Notes: generated by a model not told the origin, from the sequence alone. DNA of 64,000 nt from Turneriella sp. (GCA_965279515.1 CBDIID010000003.1:3776001-3840000); one strand, 5' to 3'. Shown: positions 1 to 29,440, numbered from the stretch's first letter. Numbers and translations: made by a program.

Positions 1-26
1 CGCGCCCGCAGCAGGTAAATTTTGTT
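1..26 (-). repeat. attC-like element E0 (partial, right arm only)
   Basis: gcagcaggtaaattttGTT matches the right arm of the other elements. Confidence 0.8.
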
Positions 27-224
27 GTCTGAAGTAGTTGCGCTTGCAAGCCCGGGTAGGAGGCCCGGGCGATCATAACGAATCATTTTTCATGAACTTT
101 GATGAGATTTCGAAACAGGCTTTACACTTATAGCAAATTCTAAATTTTGAAACCGCATGAGAAATAATTCCCAATATTTGGAGAATAGCGGCCCGTATTT
201 AGCCTCTTTATTTATATCTGAAAA

Positions 225-830
225 ATGCTGATAGAAATTTTTGCTTCCGCAGTCACATGTATTTTGGGAATTGATTGTGATCTGAGTGCAACTTTAAAAA
301 GTAAAATAGAGGCGATTCCGAATGTAAAAAGCACTGAGGTGGTGCAAGATTATTCTCTAACTGAACGGTATCATGCGAGGATTACTCTTCGATCTGGAGA
401 TACTTTTGACCTGATTTACATTGGAAATGAGCATCTTTTAGAAACAGAATACTTCTGGATTAGGCAAATTAATGGCTATCAATATGATTATGTCTACTGC
501 GAAAAGTCAACAAGTCCCAATCAAGCCGGCAAAATTCGCCACGGTCACTTTTCCTTAGGCTCACGGGGCAGTTTTCAGCATAAATTTCCCTTCTTAATTC
601 GCAATATCAAAGATCTAGTGCAAAATTTCGAGGCCATCAAGATTGAGTACTTCCGGACATCGGTTGAGCCTAAATTTCTTTACGACAAACTGTCTGATGG
701 GAATGAAATCTATGCTATGTTGCTCAAAGTCAGAGATAAGAATCCTTTGGGCCCTTATATCTTTCTATTAGGCGAGCCTTATAAAAATGCCTGGAAGTTT
801 AAGAATGGTGCATGCCGATATGAACATTAA
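225..830 (+). CDS. Hypothetical protein (cassette 1, inverted orientation)
   Basis: 201-aa ORF filling the cassette; no family recognised. Confidence 0.7.
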   Translation: MLIEIFASAVTCILGIDCDLSATLKSKIEAIPNVKSTEVVQDYSLTERYHARITLRSGDTFDLIYIGNEHLLETEYFWIRQINGYQYDYVYCEKSTSPNQAGKIRHGHFSLGSRGSFQHKFPFLIRNIKDLVQNFEAIKIEYFRTSVEPKFLYDKLSDGNEIYAMLLKVRDKNPLGPYIFLLGEPYKNAWKFKNGACRYEH

Positions 831-944
831 GGTCGAAGCCAAGGGGTTAATTGGTCTAGCCACTACGGTCTGAGTTTTATTGCTTATGAAGTGAGCAGCG
901 CCGACAGGAGGTCGGCGGAAAAGGGAAGCGCAACTATTTCAGAC

Positions 945-1152
945 AACGTGGAATTTACCTGACGATTGGTGACACTTGTGTCATTAATTTAATCAGGAAA
1001 GCCGAATTGTGTCACCAATTGTGCCCGAAGCGCCTCGCGGCAAAGCACAAAACAAGCGTCCCGCTTGTGCTTTGTCCGCGATCTTCTGGCGCGTAGGGCC
1101 GAGCACGCGAGGAGCTACGGCACCGCAGCGAGCGCAGCAGGTAAATTTTGTT
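945..1152 (-). repeat. attC-like element E1
   Basis: AACgtggaatttacctg ... caggtaaattttGTT; arms complementary. Confidence 0.88.
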
Positions 1153-1162
1153 GTCAGCCGTT

Positions 1163-1798
1163 TCATTGTTTAGAGTGCATAACTATATAGGGTTTCAGGA
1201 AAGTCTCAAATTCAGTAATTATTTCCTCTAACCGGTGCTTGTATGGATCCTCGTTGGAAATCGGCGATACTATCCGCCAGTTCTTTTCTTCTTCCTCAAT
1301 TTCTTCGGCTGATCGATTAATACGACTTGCCTTGCTTTGTAGACTTCGTAAATGCTCGTTGATAGCGAAACTTAAGTTGGAAATATGTTGATTATACTTT
1401 ACTGTAACATCTTTGAAGGTTTTACCCCAAATGACCTCGGCTTCATAAAAATTTGATTGCAGTTCGGTAGAAACCTTTGAGTACTTTGTCCATCGGGCCT
1501 CATATACATAACCAATATGATTATCAGATTTCCAGAAATCTTTGAGATCTTGTTCCGCATTTTTGCTAAGTTTCTCAATGGCTTCAACGCTTTCTCTGGC
1601 CCAAATAAAGGGTGATCGGACCTGAGCAATAACGTCACGGGATCTATATAATGCTTTTAAGATGCGCTTAGCCAATTCGTATTCATAGTTTCCTTTCAGC
1701 TGGCGCCGCCAGGTAGAGAGACCTTTTATCGCAACTATTGAGCCAATCACTGCAAATATGATTGTTAGTGTGTCTTTCGCAATTGTAAAATATTCCAT
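1163..1798 (-). CDS. Hypothetical protein with N-terminal TM helix (cassette 2)
   Basis: 211-aa ORF; stop codon lies inside the cassette terminal inverted repeat. Confidence 0.8.
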   Translation of the reverse strand: MEYFTIAKDTLTIIFAVIGSIVAIKGLSTWRRQLKGNYEYELAKRILKALYRSRDVIAQVRSPFIWARESVEAIEKLSKNAEQDLKDFWKSDNHIGYVYEARWTKYSKVSTELQSNFYEAEVIWGKTFKDVTVKYNQHISNLSFAINEHLRSLQSKASRINRSAEEIEEEEKNWRIVSPISNEDPYKHRLEEIITEFETFLKPYIVMHSKQ

Positions 1799-1830
1799 AT
1801 AACTAGTCCTTAAGCAATGAAATGGCTGAC

Positions 1831-2037
1831 AACGTGGAATTTACCTGAGGTTGAGTGACGCATCGTTCAACTTTGTATTTTGTAAAGCCATATTGCGTCA
1901 CTCAATCTGCCCGGAGCGCCTCGCGGCAAAGCACAAAACAAGCGTCCCGCTTGTGCTTTGTCCGCGATCTTCTGGCGCGTAGGGCCGAGCACGCGAGGAG
2001 CCACGGCACCGCAGCGGCGCAGCAGGTAAATTTTGTT
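1831..2037 (-). repeat. attC-like element E2
   Basis: Same architecture as E1; nearly identical to E3. Confidence 0.88.
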
Positions 2038-2056
2038 GTGTGCAGTGATCGCTCGG

Positions 2057-3016
2057 TTAAGGGTATTTGCGCCAACCCAAGACTTTAATTAGGTGAGAGT
2101 AGACTTTTTTGACACCCAACTCTATTTTTTTAACATCTGCATCAACATTATTAATCAAATAACCACTTTCGAGGCTAGCTCGATGGATTATCTGGTGTCG
2201 ATGTTGAAATAGCTCTTCCAGGTGCTTATAGAGTGATTTAGTAGATTTTTTGTATCTGGTCTTAAGCACTTTCGCTAAGTCAAATCTCATATCAATGTCC
2301 TTAAAGGATTCAGATATTGATCTCATATTTTGAAATGATATACTCTGCGCCAAGGCTTCAACAGCAGTTGTTCGCCCCATGGCCAGATCATAATTGTGCG
2401 CCTTATGAATTTGTTGCTTCCGGAAGAAGGATTCATTGCCTCGATATCGAATGAGGGCAATAAATGTATCACGAAAATACTTTTCTGTAATTGAAATTAG
2501 GTACGGCAGTGCCATCGCCGCTGGAACGGCTAATGGATGATGTCGGCCCATTATTTCGATCGAAAACTTATTCGAGGGAATACCAGGGGAAACTTTGGAC
2601 CTAAAATTGCGCAAATAGGATCTCATTGCCCCGACTGATTGATGAAAACTTTCAAAGGCTAAAAAGCAACCAGCTTCGTCTTTTTCCCGATTTTCACCAT
2701 TTAATGAAAAATATCGCCCGCGCCCTCTGTCTGTTGAAAATGTACCGCCAAATCTCTCTTTAACCAAGCGGATAATACGATTCTGCATTTTCAAGTCCCA
2801 TTCTGAGCAGAATATCGTGGTCCTTGTACAAATCTTTGTATTGTCTCGCTCTTTATTCAATATATAGATGCCAACGCCTTGATAATACCTGTAATCTTCA
2901 TCTTTATAAAAATAGTAGTACCCAGGCTCACTTTTAGTGGCGCCAATAGTTGTTAGAAATTCTTCAATTTTCTTTTGAGGAGTCTTAGGGATAGTGTTTT
3001 CAGAATCGTGTCCCAT
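2057..3016 (-). CDS. Putative HEPN-domain protein (cassette 3)
   Basis: 319 aa; helical C-terminal region with RxxxxH motif (RHQIIH). Confidence 0.6.
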   Translation of the reverse strand: MGHDSENTIPKTPQKKIEEFLTTIGATKSEPGYYYFYKDEDYRYYQGVGIYILNKERDNTKICTRTTIFCSEWDLKMQNRIIRLVKERFGGTFSTDRGRGRYFSLNGENREKDEAGCFLAFESFHQSVGAMRSYLRNFRSKVSPGIPSNKFSIEIMGRHHPLAVPAAMALPYLISITEKYFRDTFIALIRYRGNESFFRKQQIHKAHNYDLAMGRTTAVEALAQSISFQNMRSISESFKDIDMRFDLAKVLKTRYKKSTKSLYKHLEELFQHRHQIIHRASLESGYLINNVDADVKKIELGVKKVYSHLIKVLGWRKYP

Positions 3017-3051
3017 ATTTAGACTAAGTATTTCTCGCGATCATTGCACAC

Positions 3052-3259
3052 AACGTGGAATTTACCTGAGGTTGAGTGACGCTTTGTTCAACTTTGAAAA
3101 TTGTAAAGCCATATTGCGTCACTCAATCTGCCCGGAGCGCCTCGCGGCAAAGCACAAAACAAGCGTCCCGCTTGTGCTTTGTCCGCGATCTTCTGGCGCG
3201 TAGGGCCGAGCACGCGAGGAGCTACGGCACCGCAGCGAGCGCAGCAGGTAAATTTTGTT
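3052..3259 (-). repeat. attC-like element E3
   Basis: AAC 3052-3054 to GTT 3257-3259. Confidence 0.88.
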
Positions 3260-3270
3260 GTCTGCCGTTT

Positions 3271-4413
3271 TCATGTTCGATCGCCACGACTTCTAAGATT
3301 GTAAATGTTATTTTGGATGTTTGCCGCTATTAAGGGAATTAGGAATGTGCTTGGAGCCAGTAAAAGATACAGCACATAAATACCTGAGCCAATTGATTCC
3401 AGTATGGCTTTCTTATGCTCCACTAGCGAAACTAAGCCAAACTGCAAAGCAAAGATCAAGCAAAATGCGAGGGCGCTCGATCCGAAGTTTACGCTGAATA
3501 TGATAGCCGATTTCTTGATACCTCTCAATATGTTCGAGTTATCTTCTATGATCGCAAATGGAACATACCAACAAAAAATGCTCACAACAGTCGCGACAAC
3601 TTGACTTACGGTGGCGACAGGGAGCCACACATCATTCAGCACATCTGTGAAGTTACCGGCATTCATATACGTGCCATACTTGGAAAAAAAGAAAACTAGA
3701 TCTCTAATGGAAATCAGGAGCCCGAGTACGATGTTAAATGAGAATACTCGGGCAAATGGTGATAAATTCTCCGATGAATACAGGGAAGTATCCTTCTTCA
3801 AGAGTAAATTAATAAAATAGATTTGACCTAGAGAAATCACAGCCGTGCCGATCACCTTTAGGTTCAGAAAGAAGAACACCGTTGAGAATGGTGTTAAGCC
3901 TGAAATCGTTGTCCCGTTCCGAAAAATATGTACAATCACGCCGAGAAAAAAGAGGAATAACGGAATTAGGAGAATGAGGCGAAAATTTCGGACAGCATTT
4001 TTTGTAGGCGTCGTTGCTTTTACCTTGAAGACAATTAGTAGTAACCAGGTTGTTACTAGCACGAATAGTGTTTCAATCTGATGAAAACCATTTCCCACAT
4101 TGGCTAGGGTGTTATAGGCTATCTCACCCCATTTGCCAGCCTTGGCAACTTTTGCTTCGGTATCAAGCAGTTCCGTTGAACGAGTAAAAATCCAAAGACC
4201 GTACAAATGCAAGATAATGGTTAGAAGCAAACCGGGTAATGCATAAATGAGAATTCGCCATATTGCATCAATGTCCAAGCGAAGCCATTTTAATTGGCTT
4301 TCGTCCTTAGCTTGTTCAATGTTTGCAGCTTTTTTTTGCCGCAACTTCATTACAATTCCCGTGATGATAATTCCCGCAGCACCGAACCAGAGTATGATGT
4401 CTTCTTTATTCAT
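3271..4413 (-). CDS. Multi-pass membrane protein, unknown function (cassette 4)
   Basis: 380 aa with many hydrophobic segments; stop inside the terminal inverted repeat. Confidence 0.8.
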   Translation of the reverse strand: MNKEDIILWFGAAGIIITGIVMKLRQKKAANIEQAKDESQLKWLRLDIDAIWRILIYALPGLLLTIILHLYGLWIFTRSTELLDTEAKVAKAGKWGEIAYNTLANVGNGFHQIETLFVLVTTWLLLIVFKVKATTPTKNAVRNFRLILLIPLFLFFLGVIVHIFRNGTTISGLTPFSTVFFFLNLKVIGTAVISLGQIYFINLLLKKDTSLYSSENLSPFARVFSFNIVLGLLISIRDLVFFFSKYGTYMNAGNFTDVLNDVWLPVATVSQVVATVVSIFCWYVPFAIIEDNSNILRGIKKSAIIFSVNFGSSALAFCLIFALQFGLVSLVEHKKAILESIGSGIYVLYLLLAPSTFLIPLIAANIQNNIYNLRSRGDRT

Positions 4414-4469
4414 AGGTGTTTTCTTTCTCCAGTAAATTCAATAAAACGTATATCATGAAAATGGCAGAC

Positions 4470-4676
4470 AACGTGGATTTTACGCTGACGTTTTTTGACG
4501 CTTGTGTCATTTAATCAATTTGTAAAGCCGATTTGCGTCAAAAAATGTGGTCGTAGCGGCTCGCGGCGACGCGCGAAAACACACCTCCCGGTGTGCGCGT
4601 CGTCCGCGATCTTTGCCGCGGAGACCCGAGCACGCGACCCAACGAAGTGGTCGCGGCGCAGCGCGTAAAATTTGTT
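4470..4676 (-). repeat. attC-like element E4
   Basis: AACgtggattttacgc ... gcgtaaaatttGTT. Confidence 0.88.
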
Positions 4677-4777
4677 CTCTGACGTAGTTGTGCCTGTGAG
4701 CCCGGGCATGGATGGCCGGGCGAATATGTATCAGACTCCTATAAATTCTTGACAGGCTCAAACAATTCATCAGTCTC

Positions 4778-5047
4778 TTGTCCGATATGAATGCAGAAAC
4801 GATTCCGGCACATGCATATATTTCAAGTTCCCCAGAGATTTGTGGGGGAGAGCCAGTAATTTCTGGGACACGAATGACAGTAAGAGCAGTGGTTCAGTAT
4901 GTTTTGATTCAAGGTCTTACCCCCGAGGAGCTAGAACGGGAGTTTAAACAACTAAGTCTTTCACAAATTTATGATGCTCTGTCTTATTACTATGACCACA
5001 AAAGCATAATCGACAAGTTTATAGCCGAGAACTCGGCCAAGAATTGA
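4778..5047 (+). CDS. DUF433-family antitoxin (cassette 5)
   Basis: ISSSPEICGGEPVISGTRMTV...QIYDALSYY signature. Confidence 0.9.
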   Translation: MSDMNAETIPAHAYISSSPEICGGEPVISGTRMTVRAVVQYVLIQGLTPEELEREFKQLSLSQIYDALSYYYDHKSIIDKFIAENSAKN

Positions 5048-5385
5048 CCCCAATTAAGCTATATCTAGATGAAGACGTAAGACCTCTTCTGGCAGAAATT
5101 CTTACTGAGCGCGGTTTTGAAGCCACCCACACGCTGTTTCATGGGAATTCTGGGAAAACGGATTTGCAACAGCTGGAATTCGCTGCTCAAAATCAGCTTA
5201 CTCTACTTACGCACAATATTCGCGACTTTGCCAATCTACATACTGTCTTTCTTAACGGAGACAAAAAACACTTCGGAATTATTTGCGCACCGCAATTGAA
5301 ATTGCCATTACTAGTCTCGCGCACGTTAGTCTTGCTTTCATCAGTCAATAAAGATTCTGCACGTAATAATCTCCTCTGGATTTAG
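5044..5385 (+). CDS. DUF5615 PIN-like toxin (cassette 5)
   Basis: KLYLDEDV...LLTHNIRDF...HFGII motifs; overlaps the DUF433 stop by 4 bp. Confidence 0.88.
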   Translation: MTPIKLYLDEDVRPLLAEILTERGFEATHTLFHGNSGKTDLQQLEFAAQNQLTLLTHNIRDFANLHTVFLNGDKKHFGIICAPQLKLPLLVSRTLVLLSSVNKDSARNNLLWI

Positions 5386-5449
5386 GGAGCATCCTGCGAG
5401 TTGCGCCGCCATGGAGGGCGGCGGAGTAAAGGGCACAACTATGTCAGAG

Positions 5450-5660
5450 AACGTGGAAAATACCCGAATTGCGCCCTCGCGGCTGTAAAGTGTAAATAAT
5501 CACGGCTTTATGTGACTTTCGCGGGAGCGCATTTGCCCGGAGCGCCTCGCGGCAAAGCACAGAACAAGCGTCCCGCTTGTGCTTTGTCCGCGATCTTTGG
5601 CGCGCAGGGCCGAGCACGCGAGCCAACGAAGTGCTCGCGGCGCAGCGGGTATTTTTTGTT
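5450..5660 (-). repeat. attC-like element E5
   Basis: AACgtggaaaatacccg ... cgggtattttttGTT; compensatory arm changes. Confidence 0.85.
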
Positions 5661-5851
5661 AGCCGCCGTTACCGGATTCGCGCGGCTGGCGAGCAACCCG
5701 AAGGTCAGCGAGATACTGTATTTCGATCTTATTAGTAACCGAGGAGTTGTCGCCAGGATCAAAGGCGTAAGCAGCGAAATCTGGCTGTGCTCTCTGATAA
5801 CAAATCCTCTTTTTCGCCCCTTCGGGCGCGAAGGAGGTAATGGTGGCTAAC
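5658..5851. other. ORF-less cassette 6 (~190 bp, structured)
   Basis: Bounded by gttagccgccgttacc / ggtaatggtggctaac; no self-contained ORF of 60 aa or more. Confidence 0.75.
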
Positions 5852-6063
5852 GTGGAATTTACACGAGGTCGATGGTGCGCCGCACAATAAGAGCAGGCTT
5901 ATTTGGGAAGCCGCGTATTAAGCACCATCGATCTGCCGTAGACCGCTCGTTGCGCCTGACCAAACAAACGTCCCGTTTGTCAGGCGTCAACGATCTTTGC
6001 GGTCGGAGGCCGAGCACGCGAGGAGCCACGGCACCGCAGCGAGCGCAGCGTGTAAATTTTGTT
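5849..6063 (-). repeat. attC-like element E6
   Basis: AACgtggaatttacacg ... cgtgtaaattttGTT; nearly identical to E8. Confidence 0.88.
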
Positions 6064-6081
6064 GGGCGCCGTTTTGTGGCC

Positions 6082-6399
6082 TCAACCACGATATTGCTTC
6101 TTGTCTACTTGTGTCGGCAAATTCCGAATTTTGGCCCAATATTCTTCTCGAGCATCTTCATCAATCTGTACAACCGCGCCGTAAAGTGTATCAGAGCCAT
6201 TCTTTTTTGGACCAGAAATCCAATAGTGGTCCCCAGTCTCTGCCTCAATACAGTTATACTTGTAGCCTGAACCTATTTTCTGAAAGGTTTTGCCGTCATA
6301 GTGGTATGAGCGCTTAGACTTTGATAGGGTTACCCAGCCAATGCGGCCTGGCCCAGCTAGGCCTTGGCTTTTGTCTTCTATATACATGATCCGTTTCAT
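6082..6399 (-). CDS. Small conserved hypothetical protein (cassette 7)
   Basis: 105 aa, RIMYIEDK...RIG...YWISGP...IDEDAREEYW; resembles a widespread family of unknown function. Confidence 0.8.
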   Translation of the reverse strand: MKRIMYIEDKSQGLAGPGRIGWVTLSKSKRSYHYDGKTFQKIGSGYKYNCIEAETGDHYWISGPKKNGSDTLYGAVVQIDEDAREEYWAKIRNLPTQVDKKQYRG

Positions 6400-6592
6400 A
6401 CTTTTAGCCTCACAGTTTGAGACAAACCGATTCTAGGCGTTTTTGACATATTTTCAATTCTTTTTCGGAATTGAAGATTCCCTATGCGCTTAATTGTGAG
6501 GGGCGCCAAAAATTGCCCAAATAGGGTAAATGAATTCAGTACCGCTCTTTTACCGTATTTCGGTAAATGTGTCTTGCCACAAAATGGCGCCC

Positions 6593-6801
6593 AACGTGGA
6601 TTTTACGCTGACGTTTTTTGACGCCAGTGTCAATTATTCAATTTGTAAAGCCGATTTGCGTCAAAAAATGTGGTCGCAGCGGCTCGCGGCGACGCGCGAA
6701 AACACACCTCCCGGTGTGCGCGTCGTCCGCGATCTTAGCCGCGGAGACCCGAGCACGCGAGGAGCTACGGCACCGCAGCGGCGCAGCGCGTAAAATTTGT
6801 T
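6593..6801 (-). repeat. attC-like element E7
   Basis: Same family as E10-E13. Confidence 0.88.
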
Positions 6802-6961
6802 GTCTGAAGTAATTGCGCCTGTGAGCCCGGCTAGGAGGGCCGGGCGACGAGGGTGAAAGTCTCGTAACTCGCCTTTTAGTTTCTCTGCATTTCGGGCTTT
6901 ACACCCGAGAGTTCTGCGACATGCCACCTTTGGTGGATCAAAATTCCTTCTATGCTCAATT

Positions 6962-7849
6962 ATGGCCCTACACAGATCAACAGACGCAGAACTTAGGGAG
7001 AATTGCCGGAAGGTCATTGAGGCTCTCGAATTCTGGCTAAGGCGAGTAATTGATATTACGCTAGCCCCCGTATTTGGTGCAGACTACGTAAATGCAAGCC
7101 ATATTAATGGAAATCAGCATATAATTAAGAAATCTGTACGGGATGGTATTAAGGGTCGAGCTGAGGCGAGCCCAAAGCGCTACCCAAGAATGATTGATGC
7201 GGTTCTTCTTGATGAAGAAATCGATATCATCTGTCATCCTGAGTTATATATTAAGTTTTTCAAAGAATATTTTGAGCAATCCTATCCCTTTGGAAATGAT
7301 CATCTTAGGCATTATCTGCGCAAGATTCTGGAGCCCAGAAATAATCTTGCTCATGCTAATCCGATAAGTGTTCGGCAAGCAGAACAAATAATGTGCTATT
7401 CGAATGATGTCATTGACGCCATAAAGAATCGGCTAAAAGAAAAGAATCTGGATAAAGAATACAACGCTCCCACGATAATCAAGATTTCAGATTCGAGGGG
7501 TATTGTGTTTCATGATTCTTAGATTAGAAGGAATAACACCGGTCGCGGAGGCATTGATCTAACGGGGGATCAGGCCGCCTCGCTAAGGTCTGGGGACACA
7601 ATAAGTATAGAAGTAGAAATTGATCCTAGCTTTCCTTCTGAAGAGTACGCGGTCGACTGGGTATTTCCGGAAAACGTAAATGCGGAAAAGTATAATTCTA
7701 ATAACAGAGTGGTTTTGCACCTAACTGATAAAAATGTCCGAGTAGATTTCACCGTGTATTGTAAGGTAATTTCAACTAAAGGTTGGCACAGGTGCGGTGA
7801 CGTTGATGATTGCGTGGGCATTACGTACAAGGTTTTGCCGTCAATTTGA
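6962..7849 (+). pseudogene. Swt1-like HEPN protein interrupted by one in-frame TAG (cassette 8)
   Basis: RNNLAH motif; TAG at 7520-7522, then the same frame stays open 108 more codons to TGA 7847-7849 near the cassette end. Confidence 0.72.
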
Positions 7850-7926
7850 AGGATTACCGCAAATGGAATATTAGTGTAAGCGCCGACACGAGGTCGGCGG
7901 ATAACAAAGGCGCAATTATTTCAGAC

Positions 7927-8141: not shown

Positions 8142-8207
8142 GTCTGACGTAGTTGCCGTTGTGAGCCCAGCCAAGGAGGGCTGGGCGAATTTCCGAATAA
8201 TGTCTCT

Positions 8208-9085: not shown

Positions 9086-9147
9086 GTCTGAAGTAATTGC
9101 GCCTGTGAGCACGGGCATGGAGGCCCGGGCGACGACGGACAAGTTCT

Positions 9148-21111: not shown

Positions 21112-21114
21112 ATT

Positions 21115-21585: not shown

Positions 21586-21586
21586 A

Positions 21587-22021: not shown

Positions 22022-22431
22022 AATTTGCCAGCACAATTCACCGGACGATAGTGCGCGTTATTTTTTTCTGCCTGCTTTCAGCACTCGCCGCGCAAGTGCC
22101 GCAAGATGTATTGTTGCTTGAAGAAGAACAGGTGAATATTTTTCATTTGCACCGAAATTGTAAATCTCTCGGTGTGATCGAAACGGAAAGGTCATGGCCG
22201 TATAAAAAAACAGAATATGCATCACTCGAAAAATCCAGGATCGCAGAAGAAGCAATTATGCGCGACATGGGCTATCGGGCCGGGGCAAACGCCATGCAGT
22301 TCTTAGGTATGAAATATAGCGTCAGAACGATCGGTCGGAAAATACCGGAATTCAGAATTGACATTAGCACCGATATTCGCTACTGGAAATGTGACCCCAA
22401 AACGCTCGGTATGCTAAAGCGCAGAGAATGA
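22018..22431 (+). CDS. Hypothetical exported protein
   Basis: ATGA-coupled to its neighbours; signal peptide. Confidence 0.7.
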   Translation: MKFASTIHRTIVRVIFFCLLSALAAQVPQDVLLLEEEQVNIFHLHRNCKSLGVIETERSWPYKKTEYASLEKSRIAEEAIMRDMGYRAGANAMQFLGMKYSVRTIGRKIPEFRIDISTDIRYWKCDPKTLGMLKRRE

Positions 22432-23231
22432 TGCTGCGCGTATTTGTCGGCGTCTTTCTGTTCGCATGCCTCGCCGCATGCAATGCGCGCCCGTCGTTCG
22501 ATAAGATGATTGTGCGCCAACCGGGGTCGCGAAAGGCGATTGGGAACAAAGTCTTCGTCGATCAGGCGACCGGCGGCGGCGAAAACGACGCCCTGTCGCC
22601 AACGATCGCCGGCGAAATCAAAATTCCCAACGAAGAATTCACCAAGGCTGTTGAAACGTCGATACGCCAATCCGGTTTTTTCTCAGAGTATGCCGCGCGC
22701 TTTGAAGAAGAGTGGGGGCTGCGGGTGCTCATCGTCAACGTTGAAACGCATATGGACATGCTTGCGGCGACCATGACAGGGCACGTGACGGCGAGATATT
22801 CCGTTTTTTACAAGAATAATCCGGCATACGAATTTGAGTTTCAGACTAAGGGTGCCGCGACCGATTACCTCGGCAGCTATGGCGGTCTGCGCAAAGAGGC
22901 GGTTGAAAAAGCGACGCAGCAAAATATTGCACAATTTTTGCAGCACGTCGTAACCTATGATTTCTCCGATATTACCGAAGCGCCTGTGCAAGAAAAGCTA
23001 CGGCAGAAAAAACAAATTCGCATCGTTGGGCGCATTTTCCAGATTAACGGACGCAAGGTCGATATCATACCCGCCGCTGGGGCGCTCAAAGTGGGAAAAA
23101 TTTACACTATCTTGCGCAAGGACAGGCCAGTCGCAACTGTAAGGGTAGATACCGTCTTCCATACCAAGTGTGCCGGAAAAATCTTGACCGGCGGCGCGGC
23201 GATCGCACCGGATATGTCTGTTGGACAGTGA
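22428..23231 (+). CDS. Hypothetical lipoprotein
   Basis: LAAC lipobox; ATGA overlap. Confidence 0.75.
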   Translation: MMLRVFVGVFLFACLAACNARPSFDKMIVRQPGSRKAIGNKVFVDQATGGGENDALSPTIAGEIKIPNEEFTKAVETSIRQSGFFSEYAARFEEEWGLRVLIVNVETHMDMLAATMTGHVTARYSVFYKNNPAYEFEFQTKGAATDYLGSYGGLRKEAVEKATQQNIAQFLQHVVTYDFSDITEAPVQEKLRQKKQIRIVGRIFQINGRKVDIIPAAGALKVGKIYTILRKDRPVATVRVDTVFHTKCAGKILTGGAAIAPDMSVGQ

Positions 23232-23315
23232 CGGCGTTTCTGCTTTTACTATAACTGTCCGTACCCAAAATTAATTCTGGCTGACGCCCTTACCGATGCG
23301 CCGGTTCATGCATCT

Positions 23316-23597
23316 ATGGCACAAAACATCCACGCATTCACCGCCGCCAACATTTCCGGCAAAGAAACAAGCCTCGCCGATTACAAAGGCAAAGTTGTTT
23401 TGATTGTGAACACCGCCAGCAAATGCGGCTTCACACCGCAGTTCGCGGGTCTCGAATCGCTGTACGAAAAATACAAAGACCGCGGTCTCGTGATTCTTGG
23501 CTTTCCCTGCAACCAATTTGGCGCGCAAGAACCCGGTACATCTGATCAGATTCAGGAATTCTGTCAGCTCAACTACGGGGCAAATATAGCACTTTAA
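23316..23597 (+). pseudogene. C-terminally truncated glutathione peroxidase
   Basis: [24 protein letters not shown] present; homology stops at NYG (~23580) where the scaffold motif begins; WNFxKF motif missing. Confidence 0.88.
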
Positions 23598-23610
23598 GGC
23601 ACTAACTACC

Positions 23611-23705
23611 CATAACTTGTCATTTTGTCACCTTCAAAAACAGGCTTTACACCCGAGAGATTCGGGATTCTGTAGGCCTTAGTGGGGAGTAATTTCCTAC
23701 ATATT
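23611..23705. repeat. Scaffold module M, right copy of cassette 11
   Basis: Identical direct repeat of 18313-18407. Confidence 0.95.
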
Positions 23706-23775
23706 CAATATCGCTGTTCTCGTCAGAGCGCGCGCACGGATGCGCGCGGATAACCAAGGCGCAATTATTTCAGAC

Positions 23776-23984
23776 AACGTGGATTTTACGCTGACGTTTT
23801 TTGACGCTTGTGTCATTTATTCAATCTGTAAAGCCGATTTGCGTCAAAAAATGTGGTCGTAGCGGCTCGCGGCGACGCGCGAAAACACACCTCCCGGTGT
23901 GCGCGTCGTCCGCGATCTTTGCCGCGGAGACCCGAGCACGCGAGGAGCTACGGCACCGCAGCGGCGCAGCGCGTAAAATTTGTT
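23776..23984 (-). repeat. attC-like element E11
   Basis: E7 family. Confidence 0.88.
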
Positions 23985-24049
23985 GTCTGAAGTAATTGCG
24001 CCTGTGAGCTCGGCCACGGATGGCCGAGCGAATCCTTCGTAGGACTTCT

Positions 24050-24143
24050 CATAACTGGTTGTTTTCCCCCCCTGTCAATCGGGCTTTACAGCCGATAGGT
24101 GAGGTTTAAGTTCCCCTTAGTGAGGAGCAATATCCTATATATT
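24050..24143. repeat. Scaffold module M, left copy of cassette 12
   Basis: cataactggttgtttt...cgggctttaca...ggagcaatatcctatatatt. Confidence 0.75.
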
Positions 24144-24149
24144 AAATGT

Positions 24150-24617
24150 TCAGAGCATCAGCTCCATCGAATAGTTTACCAGAATTTGGCCATTCCGCTC
24201 GATGTGATTTTCGCAAATTTCTCGAAAGCCTTGCTTTGCAAAAAACTTTCGCGCGACAAGCGACGCTTCGACATAGAGTCGCTTTAACCGCATTTCGATT
24301 GCCTGACGTTTCACCTCTTGGTAGAGGGCCGTGCCAACACCCTTGCTTTGAAAATCTGGCCGCACGTATGCGCAGTCAATGTGTCCATCGGCCTCAAGCT
24401 CGATGAAGCCCGCAATCATCGGGCCGACAAGAGCGACATGCGGGCGCTTTTGATTAAGGCGCGTTTGCCATTTTATCATATCGGTTGGAGTTGGCGCCCA
24501 TGCTTCTTTTTGCTTAGCGGTATAAATTCTTTCATCGATGGCATGCACCGCAGTATGAAAAAGATCTGCAATCTCTCCAGCCATTGATTCAGAATAAGGC
24601 GATAATTGCCTGATCAT
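24150..24617 (-). CDS. GNAT N-acetyltransferase (YafP-like)
   Basis: DGHIDCAYVRPDFQSKGVGTAL...EASLVARKFF. Confidence 0.9.
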   Translation of the reverse strand: MIRQLSPYSESMAGEIADLFHTAVHAIDERIYTAKQKEAWAPTPTDMIKWQTRLNQKRPHVALVGPMIAGFIELEADGHIDCAYVRPDFQSKGVGTALYQEVKRQAIEMRLKRLYVEASLVARKFFAKQGFREICENHIERNGQILVNYSMELML

Positions 24618-24624
24618 ACTGAAA

Positions 24625-25227
24625 TCAGCCCGCCTTCAATCCGGCTATAAGCAAGTGAATAACCGCTTCGGCTTCGGCCCTGGCTTTCGTCGAATCTTTA
24701 GCGGTGGCAATAGCTGCGCCCGCTTCCGCAAAAGCTCCGCCCAGAATCCGCGCCGCATCGGGCAAGGGCAGCGGCCGCATGATACCCATTTCTATCCAGC
24801 GGTGCATCAAGCCCGCCACCAGAGGTTCATTGACCGTGGCGTCGGCTTCTTTAAATTTTGCGTGGGCCAAAACGGTAGGTGCCTCACGCAACAGAACCAC
24901 CTGAACAGAGGGGTCCATACAAGCATTCAGGTAAGCGCGAGCTGCTGCCTCGACTTGCGCCCAGCCTGTTTCAGCATCGGCCGCATTCTGAATGGTCGAA
25001 GCCAGTTCGGTGAAAATTTCCGAAACGACGGCGGAGAAAATGTCAATCTTGCCCGCAAAGTGGTGGTAGAGTGCGCCATGAGTCACGCGAGCTGCCCTGC
25101 AGATATCAGCAACGCTGGTTTCTGCATATCCATACTTTGTGAAGACTTGCCGAGCAACACGCAACAAACCTTTCCTTCTAACGGCTTTTTGTTCCACACG
25201 GCTTTTTACGGTTCGTTGCTTAGGCAC
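24625..25227 (-). CDS. TetR-family regulator
   Basis: GYAETSVADICRAARVTHGALYHHF. Confidence 0.92.
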   Translation of the reverse strand: MPKQRTVKSRVEQKAVRRKGLLRVARQVFTKYGYAETSVADICRAARVTHGALYHHFAGKIDIFSAVVSEIFTELASTIQNAADAETGWAQVEAAARAYLNACMDPSVQVVLLREAPTVLAHAKFKEADATVNEPLVAGLMHRWIEMGIMRPLPLPDAARILGGAFAEAGAAIATAKDSTKARAEAEAVIHLLIAGLKAG

Positions 25228-25243
25228 GAGGAAATCCGATTTT

Positions 25244-25291
25244 ATTTGACATTACGTCGTAATGTTTATACATTATCATATAATGTCAAAT
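25244..25291. promoter_or_regulatory. Tandem palindromic operators overlapping a sigma70-like promoter
   Basis: acattacgtcgtaatgt and acattatcatataatgt; TTGACA-N17-TACATT on +; lies between divergent tetR and cupin genes. Confidence 0.7.
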
Positions 25292-25410
25292 ACAATAACA
25301 ACCGCTGATCTAGGTTTTTATGGGTCACGATTCGCGCCGCACGTCTGTGGCATAGTCTCACAAACGATGTTATTTTTTCTGGGTGGGATGGCAACCATGC
25401 GCGCCCTAAG

Positions 25411-26316
25411 GTGCATATGATGAGAAAAGCGAATCTGATCTTCGGTATCGTCTTGTTTCTTGCTTTTCTAGGCACAGGATATTACATGAGCCGCTACTTC
25501 AAGCCCGAGCATCTAACGGATCTGACGATGCGCATGCAAATTCGGGCAAGCCATATCTATCTACTATTCACCGCGCTCTTAAACATCCTGGCATTTACGT
25601 GCGAACTGCGTGGAACCGGCCAGGCAAGAAAATTTTTCGATACGGCTTTTCGTCTATTTCTCGTCGCTGCCGGCACCGTCGCGCTCTGCGCATTCGCTTT
25701 CGAGCATACCGGCGACCTGAAAGAACGCAAGCTGACTTTGTTATCCGTTATATTGGCGTTAGCTTCGGTTGGCTTCATTTTGATCCACGAGATTTTGGCC
25801 GCAAAGCGCCAGCATTTATTTTTGTCTAGCCATGCCTTGACTATGGAAAAACCAATCGCTGTGAACGCTGGAAAAATTGAAGCGCGCCAAAAAAAATCCA
25901 TATACCCGGCTCCTTTTGCAGCAATGATGGCGCTGCGCGAAAAGCGAGTGCTGGGCGATCTTTTTGGCCTGACAAACTTCGGAGTGAACTTGACAACAAT
26001 TAAGCCTGGTGGCATGTCTGCGCTACGGCATGCACATGCAACACAAGATGAGTTTATCTATATTGTTTCGGGAAATCCCGTGCTGGTGACTAATGAAGGT
26101 GAAACGCAACTCAGTCCGGGTATGTGCGCGGGATTTCTTCATGGAAACGGAAACGCACACAACCTAATCAATCGCGAAAACACCGACGCTGTTTATCTCG
26201 AAATAGGCGACCGGAGCGCTGGCGATTCCATCTTATACCCCGATAACGATCTCATGGCAAATTTTGAAGGCCCTGGCAACTGGCGATTTACCCACAAAGA
26301 CGGCTCGCCCTACTAA
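25411..26316 (+). CDS. Four-TM membrane domain fused to a cupin domain
   Basis: C-terminal half LGDLFGLTNFGVNL...RHAH..QDEF...NAHNL is a cupin; N-terminal half is hydrophobic. Confidence 0.75.
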   Translation: MHMMRKANLIFGIVLFLAFLGTGYYMSRYFKPEHLTDLTMRMQIRASHIYLLFTALLNILAFTCELRGTGQARKFFDTAFRLFLVAAGTVALCAFAFEHTGDLKERKLTLLSVILALASVGFILIHEILAAKRQHLFLSSHALTMEKPIAVNAGKIEARQKKSIYPAPFAAMMALREKRVLGDLFGLTNFGVNLTTIKPGGMSALRHAHATQDEFIYIVSGNPVLVTNEGETQLSPGMCAGFLHGNGNAHNLINRENTDAVYLEIGDRSAGDSILYPDNDLMANFEGPGNWRFTHKDGSPY

Positions 26317-26361
26317 CCGAACACGTGTCTCAAAAATATAGCCCTTTAAGGGCTGACTTTC

Positions 26362-26409
26362 CATAACTGGTTGTTTTGTCCCCCTGTAAGGAGCAATATT
26401 CGAGATATT
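26362..26409. repeat. Internally deleted right copy of module M (cassette 12)
   Basis: cataactggttgttttgtcccctgt joined to aggagcaatatt; both ends match 24050-24143. Confidence 0.7.
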
Positions 26410-26475
26410 GAAGCCTGATTACGTTGCCGCGTCGACACGAGGTCGGCGCAGCACAAAGGCGCAATTATTTCAGAC

Positions 26476-26684
26476 AACGTGGATTTTACGCTGACGTTTT
26501 TTGACGCTTGTGTCATTTAATCAATCTGTAAAGCCGATTCGCGTCAAAAAATGTGGTCGTAGCGGCTCGCGGCGACGCGCGAAAACACACCTCCCGGTGT
26601 GCGCGTCGTCCGCGATCTTTGCCGCGAAGACCCGAGCACGCGAGGAGCTACGGCACCGCAGCGGCGCAGCGCGTAAAATTTGTT
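26476..26684 (-). repeat. attC-like element E12
   Basis: E7 family. Confidence 0.88.
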
Positions 26685-26727
26685 GTGCGAAGTCGATGCC
26701 TCATAAGATATTAAAGATCTGTCGGTA

Positions 26728-27156
26728 CTATCGCCCAATGGCGGGTCTTTGCTTTTCTAACGGGCGAACAAAATTGCAATCATACCCTTTTCCTTTGAAG
26801 AAGCTTGAGTTGGTATCAAAATCTCGACTTTTCCATTTCTCGCTTGAATAAGAAAAGCAACCACTTGGAGCTTTTATGTCGTTAAAATTTAGCGTGTAGC
26901 AAATGAGCTGGCCTTCTGAAATAGGGGTTTCAACGCAATAAAAGCCATCTTTGGCTGTATGGTATTGCTTTGTGACCGGTTCGGCGGCCTTAGGGTCTAG
27001 ATTAATCGTTATGCCAATATCCGAACAACCTTTTCCGTTCACGGTAACGTATCCGTACATGCTGCACTTGAATTCATGCGCTTGCGCATGAATTTTCTGA
27101 TTTAGAAAAAATGATGTAGAGGAAAAAAGTAAACAGTAGAAAATATTGCTTTTCAT
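26728..27156 (-). CDS. Hypothetical exported Cys-containing protein (cassette 13)
   Basis: AGGAG RBS abutting the terminal repeat; signal peptide. Confidence 0.75.
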   Translation of the reverse strand: MKSNIFYCLLFSSTSFFLNQKIHAQAHEFKCSMYGYVTVNGKGCSDIGITINLDPKAAEPVTKQYHTAKDGFYCVETPISEGQLICYTLNFNDIKAPSGCFSYSSEKWKSRDFDTNSSFFKGKGYDCNFVRPLEKQRPAIGR

Positions 27157-27184
27157 AAAAATCTCCTAGGCATCGATTTCGCAC

Positions 27185-27393
27185 AACGTGGATTTTACGC
27201 TGACGTTTTTTGACGCCTGTGTCATTTAATCAAATTGTAAAGCCGATTTGCGTCAAAAAATGTGGTCGTAGCGGCTCGCGGCGACGCGCGAAAACACACC
27301 TCCCGGTGTGCGCGTCGTCCGCGATCTTTGCCGCGGAGACCCGAGCACGCGAGGAGCTACGGCACCGCAGCGGCGCAGCGCGTAAAATTTGTT
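27185..27393 (-). repeat. attC-like element E13
   Basis: E7 family. Confidence 0.88.
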
Positions 27394-27573
27394 GTCTGAA
27401 GTAATTGCGCCTGTGAGCCCGGCTAGTAGGGCCGGGCGAAGAAGAATTAATGCCCTTAACCGCTCATTTTGTCATATGAAATCAGGCTTTACACTTGAGG
27501 GATTCGGGATTCTATAGGCCTGATTCGGGAGCAATTTCTTATATAATATTTCTCACCAAAGCGAAGTAACGAT

Positions 27574-28236
27574 ATGAAGCTCAAAATGATTCTATTTGCA
27601 ATGTTGATTCAGAATGGTATGATGTCTGCTCAAGAAGCGAAAAAGCCCGACCAAAAAATTTTGAGGGCCATTGATTCCGGAAACATACAAAAGGTAAATT
27701 CGGCGATAAAAGAAAACCCGTCATATCTCAATCAAGCCATTGAATTCTGGGGCACACCCCTAATTTTTGCAGTGAATAAAGATTTTCTAGCGGCGGTTGA
27801 AAGTTTAGTGAAAAGCGGTGCCGATGTGAACGGACGCGACACAGAAGGACGCACGCCACTAATGTGGTGCCCTATGGATGTGGGGCCGTTCCGTGGCTGT
27901 GGGAGGAACCAGAAGACGCCTCAGAGGAAACGCCAGGAAAGCGAGAGATGTGATACCAAGCTTGCCCGCCTGAAAAAAAACAGAGAGCGTATTCTCATAT
28001 TTCTGCTGAAATCGGGAGTCGATATTGCCGCTGTTGATAACCAAGGACGAACTGCGCTCCACTACGCAGCACGAATGGACGATTTAGACATGGTTAAGTT
28101 TTTGCTGAAAAACGGTGCGAATCCGCACGCACGGGATAAGAGAGGCATGACTCCCGCGAGCGAGACGGCGCCTGAGGGTACCGCGTCGGGCTATGACGCG
28201 GGGAGAATTAAAAAAATCCTGAAGCATAGTCTATAG
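27574..28236 (+). CDS. Ankyrin-repeat protein (cassette 14, inverted)
   Basis: GTPLIFA, GRTPLM, GRTALHYAA...LLKNGANP. Confidence 0.9.
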   Translation: MKLKMILFAMLIQNGMMSAQEAKKPDQKILRAIDSGNIQKVNSAIKENPSYLNQAIEFWGTPLIFAVNKDFLAAVESLVKSGADVNGRDTEGRTPLMWCPMDVGPFRGCGRNQKTPQRKRQESERCDTKLARLKKNRERILIFLLKSGVDIAAVDNQGRTALHYAARMDDLDMVKFLLKNGANPHARDKRGMTPASETAPEGTASGYDAGRIKKILKHSL

Positions 28237-28371
28237 AGCGACATATTATGTATGAAAGAAAAAAATAGTCCTTTAATGCTGTAACTAGCCACAATGAGTT
28301 CATCCTGTCGCAGCAGATTTGCTGCGTCGCCAAGGATGGCGACGAAGTACAAAGGCGCAATTATTTCAGAC

Positions 28372-28588
28372 AACGTTGGATTTACCTGACGTCGATGGTG
28401 CGCCGCACAATAAATGCCGTCTTCTTACGAAAGCCGCTCTTGGCGCGCCATCGATGTGCCGCAGGTGGCTGCGTTGCGCCCGCCAATTAAGCTCGACAGA
28501 GCGCGGGCGTCAACGCATTTCAGGCCACCGGAGGCCGAGCACGCGAGGAGCTACGGCACCGCAGCGAGCGCAGCAGGTAAATCTTGTT
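28372..28588 (-). repeat. attC-like element E14
   Basis: AACgttggatttacctg ... caggtaaatcttGTT. Confidence 0.85.
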
Positions 28589-28611
28589 GTGCGATGGCCA
28601 AGGCATACGTG

Positions 28612-29367
28612 TTAGTCATGTTTACTGCCTCTAATTGTCTTAATGGCCTTTTCTATAGTCTTTAGCGATAGCACTTTATGCTTCTCATTGTATTCCTCCG
28701 CAAAAGCGTCCGTTAAAACCTGTTTGCAGAATTCATATAAAGTCCGTTTTGCATCTAAACATGAAATCAATTGAAAGACAAAAAAGGTAGTTAATCCTGC
28801 AAATACTATTATGATTCTAAGATATGAGGTGTATTGCGAATAGAAGCAAAGAAGCCCACCTACAGTCAAAGCAGCAAAAAAGGTGCCGGTGACAATGGCC
28901 GCGGAACTGTTTAGCAGATGGGAAAGACCTTGAGTTCTCTCAACGGCACCTTTTATTTGATCCGAGGATTCAGTTCTCTCAAACCAAAGAGCGCTTATAA
29001 TTATCCATGCATTCTTCTTCCGGAAGTACTTTCTGAGGCACTTGGGGCCACCAGCTCTTCGGATAACTATTTTAGAACGATCAAGATATTTTTTAGTGAT
29101 TAACTCAGAAATGAAATCTGAATAATCGATCAAGAATAGTGCAGGCGCCCGATAGGCCACAGTAAAAAGGTATCCCAAAGCGCCGGCAGTAAAGGTCGCA
29201 CCGATTAGGGCAACGGCGGCATTAAATACTTGGGGCTGCGGATCTCCATTATTTAAAGTCATGGTACCGACCCAATCAGGAAACAATATCCAAGCTGCTA
29301 TCGCAACTTCGAATAGATACAGAACCCCTGGCAGAGTGTATCTAAAGAAACTGTATAAATCATTCAT
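28612..29367 (-). CDS. Hypothetical membrane protein (cassette 15, first in array polarity)
   Basis: 251 aa, about 4 TM segments. Confidence 0.78.
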   Translation of the reverse strand: MNDLYSFFRYTLPGVLYLFEVAIAAWILFPDWVGTMTLNNGDPQPQVFNAAVALIGATFTAGALGYLFTVAYRAPALFLIDYSDFISELITKKYLDRSKIVIRRAGGPKCLRKYFRKKNAWIIISALWFERTESSDQIKGAVERTQGLSHLLNSSAAIVTGTFFAALTVGGLLCFYSQYTSYLRIIIVFAGLTTFFVFQLISCLDAKRTLYEFCKQVLTDAFAEEYNEKHKVLSLKTIEKAIKTIRGSKHD

Positions 29368-29398
29368 AAGTATTTTGTCTTAGCCTTGGCTTTCGCAC

Positions 29399-29440
29399 AA
29401 CGTCTATTATCTGCATTGCGCCTTTTTGTGGGGTGTCAAT
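29399..29440 (-). other. Candidate attI-like site at the head of the array
   Basis: Last cassette terminus (AAC 29399-29401) is followed by gtcta-ttatctg, an L-box-like heptamer (cf. ttacctg) at 5-bp spacing, with no attC hairpin; TTGACA on minus strand at 29434-29439. Confidence 0.55.

Follow-up and report, generated by a model that had tools for sequence, protein, structure and literature searches.

Long paired cassette ends with an invariant G/T mispair in Turneriella arrays: a candidate single-stranded recombination site for an enzyme without I2

The window, by which we mean the whole 64,000-nt stretch of Turneriella sp. DNA analysed here (GCA_965279515.1 CBDIID010000003.1:3776001-3840000), carries in its first 29,440 nt an array of 15 cassettes separated by attC-like elements and closed by an attI-like site, downstream of which lies a cytochrome P450 gene (Table 1). 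The genome has two such arrays with 128 cassettes. A near-identical attI-like site closes the other one, and both arrays have attI on the right. We found no recombinase gene beside either array and no sigma-70-type promoter near attI. Eight single-gene cassette proteins have no Pfam family, and a PADLOC search gave 0/11 matches. The chromosomal-type block of the 9-kb carrier contains partial marR, clpP, ECF sigma, thioredoxin/DsbD and RidA genes, and the glutathione peroxidase gene of the 5.5-kb carrier (23316-23597) is truncated at an internal element. The left end of the 194-bp cassette begins 12 cassettes of the genome. Rfam gave no match in window positions 1-30000.

Table 1. Features of the array, in window coordinates, and the candidate recombinase gene, in genome coordinates.
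Feature	Position	Strand	Details
Cassette	24..947	+	stem 22 nt (24-45 / 926-947), G 34, T 937; ORF 225-830 on +
attC-like element, 208 bp	945..1152	+	AAC, 6-nt spacer, L arm, branched terminal structure, L arm, 4-nt spacer, GTT
attC-like copies	1831-2037, 3052-3259, 4470-4676, 5450-5660, 5849-6063, 6593-6801, 7927-8141	+	
attC-like copies	8898-9085, 18043-18250, 23776-23984, 26476-26684, 27185-27393, 28372-28588, one ending at 26	+	
Cassette	1150..1833	+	stem 19 nt (1150-1168 / 1815-1833), G 1160, T 1823
ORF of cassette 1150..1833	1163-1798	-	stop codon within left repeat
Cassette	2035..3054	+	stem 18 nt (2035-2052 / 3037-3054); ORF 2057-3016 on -
Cassette	3257..4472	+	stem 19 nt (3257-3275 / 4454-4472)
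ORF of cassette 3257..4472	3271-4413	-	stop codon within left repeat
Cassette	4674..5452	+	stem 21 nt (4674-4694 / 5432-5452); DUF433 + DUF5615 gene pair on +
Cassette, 194 bp	5658..5851	+	no long ORF of its own; stem 16 nt, extra G/T at 8
Cassette	6061..6595	+	stem 20 nt (6061-6080 / 6576-6595); ORF 6082-6399 on -
Carrier cassette	6799..7929	+	shared 22-nt ends (6799-6820 / 7908-7929)
Cassette	8139..8900	+	stem 18 nt (8139-8156 / 8883-8900); ORF 8208-8795 on -
Carrier cassette, 9 kb	9083..18045	+	shared 22-nt ends; chromosomal-type block between two internal-element copies
Carrier cassette, 5.5 kb	18248..23778	+	95-bp perfect direct repeat at 18313 and 23611
Carrier cassette, 2.5 kb	23982..26478	+	GNAT, TetR, cupin between two internal elements
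Cassette	26682..27187	+	stem 20 nt (26682-26701 / 27168-27187); ORF 26728-27156 on -
Carrier cassette	27391..28374	+	ankyrin-repeat gene on +
attI-proximal cassette	28586..29401	+	stem 19 nt (28586-28604 / 29383-29401), T/T at 10
ORF of cassette 28586..29401	28612-29367	-	
attI-like site	29399..29420	+	AAC + 4-nt spacer + L arm (xxT NNNN G NN T)
L003, tyrosine recombinase	G000:C3:2926093-2927193		likely enzyme, in trans

A preliminary description, made from this DNA alone, held that every cassette has its own terminal repeat with one fixed mismatch, and quoted three repeat pairs. These lie exactly at 1150/1815, 6061/6576 and 26682/27168, and in all 15 cassettes (24..29401) the ends are indeed complementary over 16-22 nt, position 11 being G on the left side and T on the right. 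Two parts of the claim need correction. Five of the 15 cassettes (starting at 6799, 9083, 18248, 23982 and 27391) share an identical 22-nt left end, which leaves 11 distinct left ends in the window; and two stems have one more pair that is not Watson-Crick, G/T at position 8 (5658-5851) and T/T at position 10 (28586-29401).

The pattern extends through the genome, as the genome-wide alignment proposed in that description confirms. Defining matched ends as at least 11/14 Watson-Crick pairs over positions 4-10 and 12-18, 116/128 cassettes have matched ends and 12 do not, and the matched ones have G/T at 11 in 116/116. Without any selection, position 11 is G/T in 124 cassettes, G/G in three and T/T in one. 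The unselected cassettes form 1649 Watson-Crick pairs against a mean of 860 (sd 23, maximum 944) in 10,000 shuffles of the right ends, so we reject a chance origin. The pairing is private to the cassette, as had been supposed: among 83 distinct ends, self pairs score 13.7/14 and non-self pairs 6.5, with at least 17 nt paired in 77/83. Stem positions 4-7 vary (G/A/C, T/G, C/G/A and T/C respectively). IS or MITE ends can be rejected since the end sequence is cassette-specific. Across 10 genomes of the class, 225/225 distinct end pairs have G/T at 11, and in a search of nine related genomes that left position 11 free, 153/153 hits have it. We conclude that this array shows no peculiarity of its own but the distinguishing trait of a widespread family whose recombinases lack the I2 insertion.

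What moves is best seen in three long duplicated cassettes, in which the left element is kept (0.98-1.0) and the right one is not (0.60-0.92). Since the left element travels with the duplicate, the mobile unit is the element of about 208 bp plus the cassette on its right. On sequence grounds the crossover is between AA and C of the + strand, which makes the + strand the bottom strand, as the preliminary description had it. The position of attI to the right of both arrays agrees, as do the other stem mismatches: among the 225 distinct end pairs, G.T or T.G occurs 20 times and A.C or C.A twice, placing the wobbles on the + strand. Pairing in a top-strand RNA is rejected, since the transcript would hold A.C, and so is recombination of double strands only, which offers no way to compare two variable arms.

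These 128 cassettes in two arrays are integron-like in having directly oriented palindromic sites bounded by AAC and GTT with crossover between AA and C. They lack the consensus RYYYAAC / GTTRRRY with 7-11 nt of R''/R' pairing, and most lack the extrahelical G that classical sites have within L'', accompanied there by a T further in, on the 3' arm. The L arms covary; most of the 127 elements pair at L positions 1-7 with no bulge and have their surplus bases in the 5' spacer, a picture that covers the arm up to L position 8. At attI sites of nine genomes the 4-nt spacer is shared, with G8 in 9/10 sites and T11 in 9/10; this L-arm T11 is on the opposite strand from the R-arm T11.

The system also departs from the canonical integron. 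We found no IntI with the I2 insertion in this genome, and none of 121 genomes of the class has an IntI match at E<=1e-60, against 67/121 in a Pseudomonadales sample at E<=1e-80. The recombinases L049-L122, considered as an IntI control, are another family without I2 and were left out. The likely acting enzyme is L003, in trans, about 0.8 Mb from the nearer array; the genome also encodes a second paralogue without I2 (L004) and XerC/XerD. Against a TIGR02249 cut-off of 265 bits, L003 scores 161 and L004 149. L003 and its orthologues lack the insertion of about 35-40 aa found in four true IntI, while the catalytic residues R, K, H, R, H and Y are all present. The closest fold match is VchIntIA (2A3V), the next XerA. 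In G002, G007, G011, G013, G024, G034, G036 and G039 the orthologue adjoins both attI and the first cassette; in G005 it stands at the array end. The gene is divergent from the array in G002, G011, G005 and G007 and co-oriented in the f8 genomes. Searches with L003 found nothing on plasmids at E<=1e-45 and two weak matches in phages. In a Bacteroidota sample, homologues 32-45% identical to L003 occur with arrays bearing G.T at 11; there the mark is on 15-nt stems adjoining related recombinases. At metagenome loci the G.T strand runs towards the recombinase in 31/32 wobble-marked cassettes.

We believe, with a probability of roughly 0.55, that each repeat pair makes up the outer (R) arm of an attC-like, single-stranded site used by a tyrosine recombinase without the I2 helix, here L003 in trans, with the G.T pair as a strand mark. 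In the excised circle the bottom strand would fold into a two-arm core (R arm, 6/4-nt spacer, L arm). This core would recombine with double-stranded attI, with resolution by replication, a scheme suggested by covariation. R-arm positions 2-12 would form an XerC-like protein-binding arm (fixed TT, G8, G11 and T12) and positions 13-18 a clamp. The fixed mispair probably tells the enzyme which strand to cut. In the forms that should react, the double-stranded attI arm (A:T) and the folded bottom strand (G.T), T11 would be on the cleaved strand; in those that should not, the folded top strand (A.C) and the double-stranded left end (G:C), it would be C11. One mispair would then replace both the extrahelical bases and the I2 of classical integrons. 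This role is deduced from conservation, and a simple T11 rule leaves the attI L-arm T11, on the opposite strand, unexplained. The preliminary description had offered a recognition determinant, a bias towards integration or a scar of synthesis, and the first fits best.

In silico folding, with the left-hand element as the cassette's partner in the circle, gave a folded R arm in 60/60 circles and in 19/60 linear hybrids. With a stem private to the cassette, folding is poorer at the hybrid sites of the linear array, and integration should be favoured over excision; the suggested bias is to that extent compatible with our results. Position 8 is paired in 55/60 circles on the top strand and 60/60 on the bottom strand. 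Since the top strand folds almost as well, the wobble would be no thermodynamic switch and would have to be read by protein. One could argue instead that stem and wobble act as a ratchet, biasing towards integration or blocking reversal or second strand exchange, and do not choose the strand. The circle folds agree with this, as do arrays of 50-200 kb that persist in the orientation promoting loss in classical integrons (PMC5371416 for the classical case). I2 blocks the second exchange by IntI (PMC7790495), so an enzyme without I2 would need a substitute. However, any mismatch would serve as a ratchet, yet G is always left and T right (225/225, and the Bacteroidota sample too), and position 11 is ten bases outside the exchange region. 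We regard this reading as quite unlikely.

Equilibrium folds of the linear strand complicate the picture, because a cassette's own ends pair in 7/7 cassettes, on both strands, ahead of the local hairpin. This weakens the case for a long stem formed only in circles. Own ends might pair on the lagging-strand template with the gene as the loop, so that, within the linear array, the R arm would be perfect and the L arm hybrid; recombination between two adjacent stems would then free element and cassette, and the long stem would serve both excision and integration. The median cassette, 735 bp, suits such a loop. Replichores were set by dif and skew, since in these genomes dnaA is off the skew minimum. 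On that basis four arrays, both of those here and those of G002 and G011, have the bottom strand as their lagging-strand template, whereas in 25/30 classical sedentary integrons it is on the leading one (PMC5371416). The three genomes involved are congeners, however, and 3/4 array flanks in G039 point to the leading template. Longer cassettes do not have longer stems (rho -0.01, n=217), equilibrium folding of seven cassettes ignores SSB and kinetics, and the wobble is left unexplained. We think excision by this route unlikely.

Could the repeats merely record how cassettes were made, one end copied from the other, with the mismatch a functionless by-product? Positions 13-18 are free in sequence yet matched, and a stop codon is within the left repeat in 10/59 minus-strand cassettes, where the other end must have been fitted to the left one. 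Homologous cassettes speak to this directly. Among 21 pairs, after leaving out 6/27 with only an IS in common, all nine stem differences (four independent changes) are two-sided, and the ends are nearly fixed while the bodies diverge to 67-79%. Because both ends change together in diverged copies of one cassette, the pairing is maintained and is not merely a birth scar. The double changes are transversions, which suggests templated copying, but copying would yield G:C or A:T, not G.T between variable neighbours, and the mark is kept across phyla. A scar as sole cause is disfavoured, and we hold this explanation to be highly improbable.

Host XerC acts on folded single-stranded IMEX phages, and it could, with or without XerD, be the acting enzyme here, the wobble being part of its arm. 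At the left end, the fixed positions T2, T3, G8, G11 and T12 are identical to those of the outward-facing XerC arm in the genome's dif (116-128 of 128), and neither array adjoins a recombinase gene. An IS481-like element has inserted 18-19 nt before the crossover end in 7/7 complete copies, much like IS1202-family elements, which lie 5 bp from XerC sites (PMC10132070). Yet positions 4-7 are unlike the XerC arm in most cassettes, and nine relatives, as well as Bacteroidota and metagenome loci, have a dedicated recombinase adjoining attI or the array end. We find XerC very improbable as the enzyme and prefer L003. The XerCD/dif system and CTXphi (PMC7790495) resemble our arrays in an enzyme without I2, a probably folded single strand, XerC-like arms and an attI with a 6-bp central region; they differ in that here one dedicated attI-linked recombinase would act on cassette-variable arms, with a target that is not dif.

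Sedentary chromosomal integrons (VchIntIA, VCR) are alike in mostly single-gene cassettes between hairpin elements, AAC/GTT boundaries, a simple attI, crossover between AA and C on the bottom strand, which is the one richer in G.T (PMC5027507), and the nearest solved fold. They differ in the I2 insertion of their recombinase, in elements of 57-141 bp, in the replication strand and in end pairing, which is 9-11 nt in classical cassettes (PMC2727003; 17 control cassettes), not the roughly 7 bp first quoted, against 17-22 nt here. A fixed G.T outside the R box with similarly long ends, a pattern that might have been routine in known integrons, is absent from the 17 controls. Here the spacers measure 6/4 nt, the longer one being on the cleaved arm, and the paired L box has no extrahelical G. 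CALINs, which we take to be attC clusters without a neighbouring integrase, likewise lack an adjacent recombinase, but our arrays keep attI, their sites are not of the classical attC kind, and the chromosome encodes an intact I2-less recombinase at another locus.

The closest paper describes the rAID-1 clusters of gut Bacteroidales (bioRxiv 10.1101/471110), which in its available text share an XerD-like recombinase beside a low-GC gene array with integron-like intergenic repeats. That text gives no attI/attC anatomy, end stems or wobble. It defines the recombinase as XerD-like and >44% identical to the B. fragilis enzyme and places the immunity genes downstream of it and co-oriented; here the gene is unlinked, and divergent in congeners, and at least two co-directional low-GC genes directly downstream of it are not found. 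In the open literature we found no description of long end stems or the wobble; the motif figure (Fig. S4) and supplements of the rAID-1 paper may bear on it.

I2 is held to permit folded single-strand recombination by integron integrases, with no intermediates known (PMC7790495). The importance of these arrays is that large shuffled cassette arrays occur beside I2-less enzymes in at least two phyla, and that the signature GTT-N7-G ... T-N7-AAC with matched ends finds arrays missed by IntI profiles. Two or three point changes would suffice to test what the single invariant mispair does. More tentatively, we suggest that the arrays are a second, widespread integron class that would use folded single strands without I2, set the strand by one G.T and excise by own ends, and, as part of the same doubtful proposal, that the fixed-end carriers are filled de novo: an IS91-family rolling-circle element would take arbitrary chromosomal fragments and Xer would load them at a dif-like site, one with a 7-nt spacer. 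If true, the class would be a living counterpart to an intermediate that is missing from the evolution of integrases, and carrier filling an observed route of cassette birth. A loose left-motif test for carriers was non-discriminating (14/24 vs 26/104). Carrier cassettes nonetheless offer a handle on how cassettes are made. As a separate observation, the repeats explain the contig joints.

The long end stems of these cassettes, and the wobble within them, are real. One array ends inside the window, which covers its last 15 cassettes; between them lie elements of 188-217 bp running from AAC to GTT. Counting from GTT on the left and AAC on the right, every one of the 15 has a GTT-side end complementary to the next AAC-side end over a stretch of 16-22 nt in which G faces T at position 11, and the pair coordinates quoted in the preliminary description are right. 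Its claim that each cassette has its own repeat holds in part: there are 11 distinct left ends in the window, but five of the 15 cassettes have one end pair in common. Aligned genome-wide, the two chromosomal arrays have matched ends in 116 of their 128 cassettes and G/T at position 11 in all 116 (124/128 with every cassette counted). The ends form 1649 pairs, against 860 +/- 23 after shuffling the right ends. Of 83 distinct ends, 81 have G:C at position 8 and 75 have T:A at position 12; the sequence at positions 13-17 varies freely, yet 79-83 of the ends pair there, and beyond position 18 pairing drops off. A 194-bp cassette without a long ORF has a further G/T at position 8; by its left end it has 12 copies in the genome, mostly behind one element family.

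Related genomes were searched in 12 regions beside recombinases of the same kind as L003 (below), requiring at least 13 of 14 end pairs and leaving position 11 free. This search, which counts only cassettes with matched ends, gave 153 matches across nine genomes and none in the other three, all 153 with G.T at position 11 on one strand. Pooled with the genome under study, 225/225 distinct end pairs have the wobble, and positions 4-10 and 12-17 hold 2872 Watson-Crick pairs, 20 G.T or T.G, 2 A.C or C.A and 31 others. A Bacteroidota sample has matches in 12 of 20 regions, with the wobble in 36/39 (28 of those on 15-nt stems). Among 80 metagenome loci, 16 of 71 lacking I2 have matches versus 0/5 bearing it; the wobble is in 32/37 matches, and 31 of those 32 turn the G.T strand towards the recombinase. 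Are long stems with a fixed mismatch routine in known integrons? Not among the controls: G/T stands at position 11 in none of 17 cassettes beside true IntI, a small control set from one order, found without end pairing as a criterion. The controls pair at positions 4-9 in 15-17 of the 17, at position 10 in 10 and at position 11 in 6, and near chance beyond, in agreement with the 9-11 nt of end pairing in classical cassettes described in PMC2727003. We found no account of long end stems or of a position-11 wobble in the open-access literature.

The preliminary description also raised a scar of cassette synthesis. A stop codon lies within the left repeat in 10 of 59 minus-strand cassettes, so one end was once fitted to the other. 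As sole cause a scar is nonetheless unlikely, since in 21 homologous cassette pairs (six alike only through insertion sequences were dropped) bodies have diverged to 67% while ends are nearly unchanged, and all nine end differences, from four independent events, are two-sided and preserve the base pair; we give the scar explanation very little credence. That all four changes are transversions suggests templated copying from one arm to the other, with selection acting afterwards. Copying of this kind ought to remove the wobble as well, so its invariance would imply that selection maintains it.

The polarity of the arrays can be read from their duplicates. Three long duplicated cassettes keep their left element (identity 0.98-1.0) and not their right (0.60-0.92); over 51 duplicate pairs mean element identity is 0.90 left and 0.69 right. 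Both arrays end at the right in a near-identical, non-palindromic attI-like site, AAC plus 4 nt plus an arm with G8 and T11, a form shared by 10 attI sites in nine genomes. That the left element travels with the cassette and the attI-like site lies at the right places the crossover at the AAC of the + strand, which is therefore the bottom strand. Of 97 cassettes with a length of 300-1400 bp, 59 have their largest ORF on the - strand. The L arms of the element covary, with positions 1-7 paired and no bulge, and the cleaved arm has a spacer of 6 nt, the opposite arm one of 4 nt. Some cassettes are common to both arrays. Outside the arrays there are solitary or decayed elements and cassettes, one of them about 1.9 kb upstream of L003, the likely cassette recombinase, suggesting integration at secondary sites.

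The genome encodes four tyrosine recombinases, XerD, a XerC-like protein, L003 and its paralogue L004, and none of the four genes adjoins either attI-ended array. L003 orthologues occur in 23 of 41 genomes searched; they adjoin attI and the first cassette in eight (G002, G007, G011, G013, G024, G034, G036, G039) and in G005 the gene lies at the end of the array. These proteins retain the catalytic residues and lack the insertion of about 35-40 residues of four true IntI. The predicted fold of L003 (pLDDT 88) best matches VchIntIA and next XerA, and in this genus residues 1-59 are confidently predicted to form an extra N-terminal three-helix domain before the core-binding domain. A 63% identical protein is encoded by a public MAG titled Spirochaetes bacterium. 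The IntI profile TIGR02249 matches none of 121 genomes of the class (E<=1e-60) versus 67 of 121 in a Pseudomonadales sample (E<=1e-80). In 8 of the 10 congeneric loci scanned, a GTTC-N7-GTTC direct repeat stands immediately upstream of the recombinase gene (expectation 0.08 per 4 kb); we take it to resemble the alphaproteobacterial LexA box, which hints at SOS control.

The system is integron-like in its working but is not a classical integron, as it lacks three marks of one: I2 in IntI, the classical R-box and the extrahelical G. In classical attC sites the R''-L'' arm has extrahelical bases (PMC5027507, PMC2727003), unlike the bulge-free L positions 1-7 here. I2 is described as necessary for cassette capture, with intermediates lacking, in PMC7790495. 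The closest published relative, judged on its description, is rAID-1 (10.1101/471110).

We folded the first 60 matched cassettes with DNA parameters, scoring position 8 as paired. It was paired in all 60 circle-form bottom strands and 55 top strands; for linear hybrids the counts were 19 bottom and 14 top. The circle is thus favoured by the private stem. The wobble itself makes little difference in energy between the strands and would therefore have to be read by a protein. We believe, at a probability of about 0.55 and from sequence patterns, that it marks the strand in place of read-out through I2 and extrahelical bases: the forms expected to react have T11 on the cleaved strand, and those not expected to react have C11. 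Against a strand mark stand the lack of linkage between L003 and the arrays in this genome and the T11 of the attI L arm, which is on the opposite strand. The stem or wobble might instead act as a ratchet or stop the reaction, which we consider doubtful. Excision could also run inside out, through pairing of a cassette's own ends; own-end pairing wins in 7/7 equilibrium folds of linear strands, which permits this route, but longer cassettes do not have longer stems (rho -0.01), and we regard inside-out excision as unlikely, if less so than a ratchet.

At its fixed positions the left end agrees with the outward XerC arm of dif, a site conserved in 5/5 genomes, so positions 2-12 resemble a binding arm. 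An IS481-like element of 1335 bp, with a short target duplication, is present in seven complete copies, all of which stop 18-19 nt short of the crossover end, a spot that supports the same assignment; IS1202-family elements likewise sit beside XerC sites (PMC10132070). Host XerC as the acting enzyme, to which this match might point, seems to us highly improbable. The IS481-like insertions ahead of the cassette's AAC are always in one orientation, and in G002 a relative occupies the same position (L028:6350).

One family of ends is common to 24 of the 128 cassettes. These carriers hold, close to their right-hand end, the beginning of a unit of about 125 bp in 8/24 cases versus 0/104 in other cassettes; its dif-like site has a XerC-like arm, a 7-nt spacer and a XerD-like arm. 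The unit is arrayed just downstream of an IS91-family transposase in G011 (six copies) and G005 (four), and the transposase query used found none in the genome under study. In the window, units flank blocks of chromosomal type in which genes have been cut (glutathione peroxidase, 93 residues against about 160; partial marR), and left copies start at the dif-like arm. The arrangement suggests rolling-circle capture, then Xer loading into an empty carrier, and the unit is a possible route of cassette birth; the model leaves private-ended cassettes unexplained.

Coordinates of arrays, cassettes and associated features (C3, chromosome contig; L numbers, loci)
Feature	Coordinates	Strand	Remark
Cassette arrays	C3 90.8-170.7 kb; 3,734-3,805 kb		
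attI-like array ends	window 29399-29440; C3:170673		
Cassettes in both arrays, examples	C3 125349/3754388; 130765/3760202		
194-bp cassette	window 5658-5851		
DUF433 + DUF5615 two-gene cassette	window 4778-5385	+	near-identical copy at C3:3761007
IS481-like copies	C3 97813, 136711, 143089, 156640, 3740503, 3748939, 3764959		
~125-bp units	window 9135-9250, 17844-17970, 18305-18410, 23583-23710, 24040-24145, 26335-26400, 28262		
Unit arrays beside IS91-family transposase	L243:3391-9400; L244		
GTTC-N7-GTTC repeat	C3 ~2927205-2927220 (L005:2620)		also L006-L010, L014, L017
Solitary or decayed elements and cassettes	C3 1067913, 1703288, 1909306, 2148617, 2805276-2808609, 2882877, 2929088, 3059551, 3496553, 3630627-3634200, 4811501-4812535		

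The DUF433 and DUF5615 genes are presumably a bacterial toxin-antitoxin pair. In both arrays here, and in those of the congeners G002 and G011, the lagging-strand template is the bottom strand; in each congener one flank shows a skew of opposite sign, and the array of G039 probably has the other orientation. Classical sedentary integrons are unlike this layout in 25 of 30 cases (PMC5371416). In the genome under study dnaA (C3 4282729) lies 1.4 Mb from the GC-skew minimum (~2.845 Mb), with dif at 304407, and in G011 dnaA and dif are likewise far from opposite; in this genus the link between dnaA and the replication origin may be lost.
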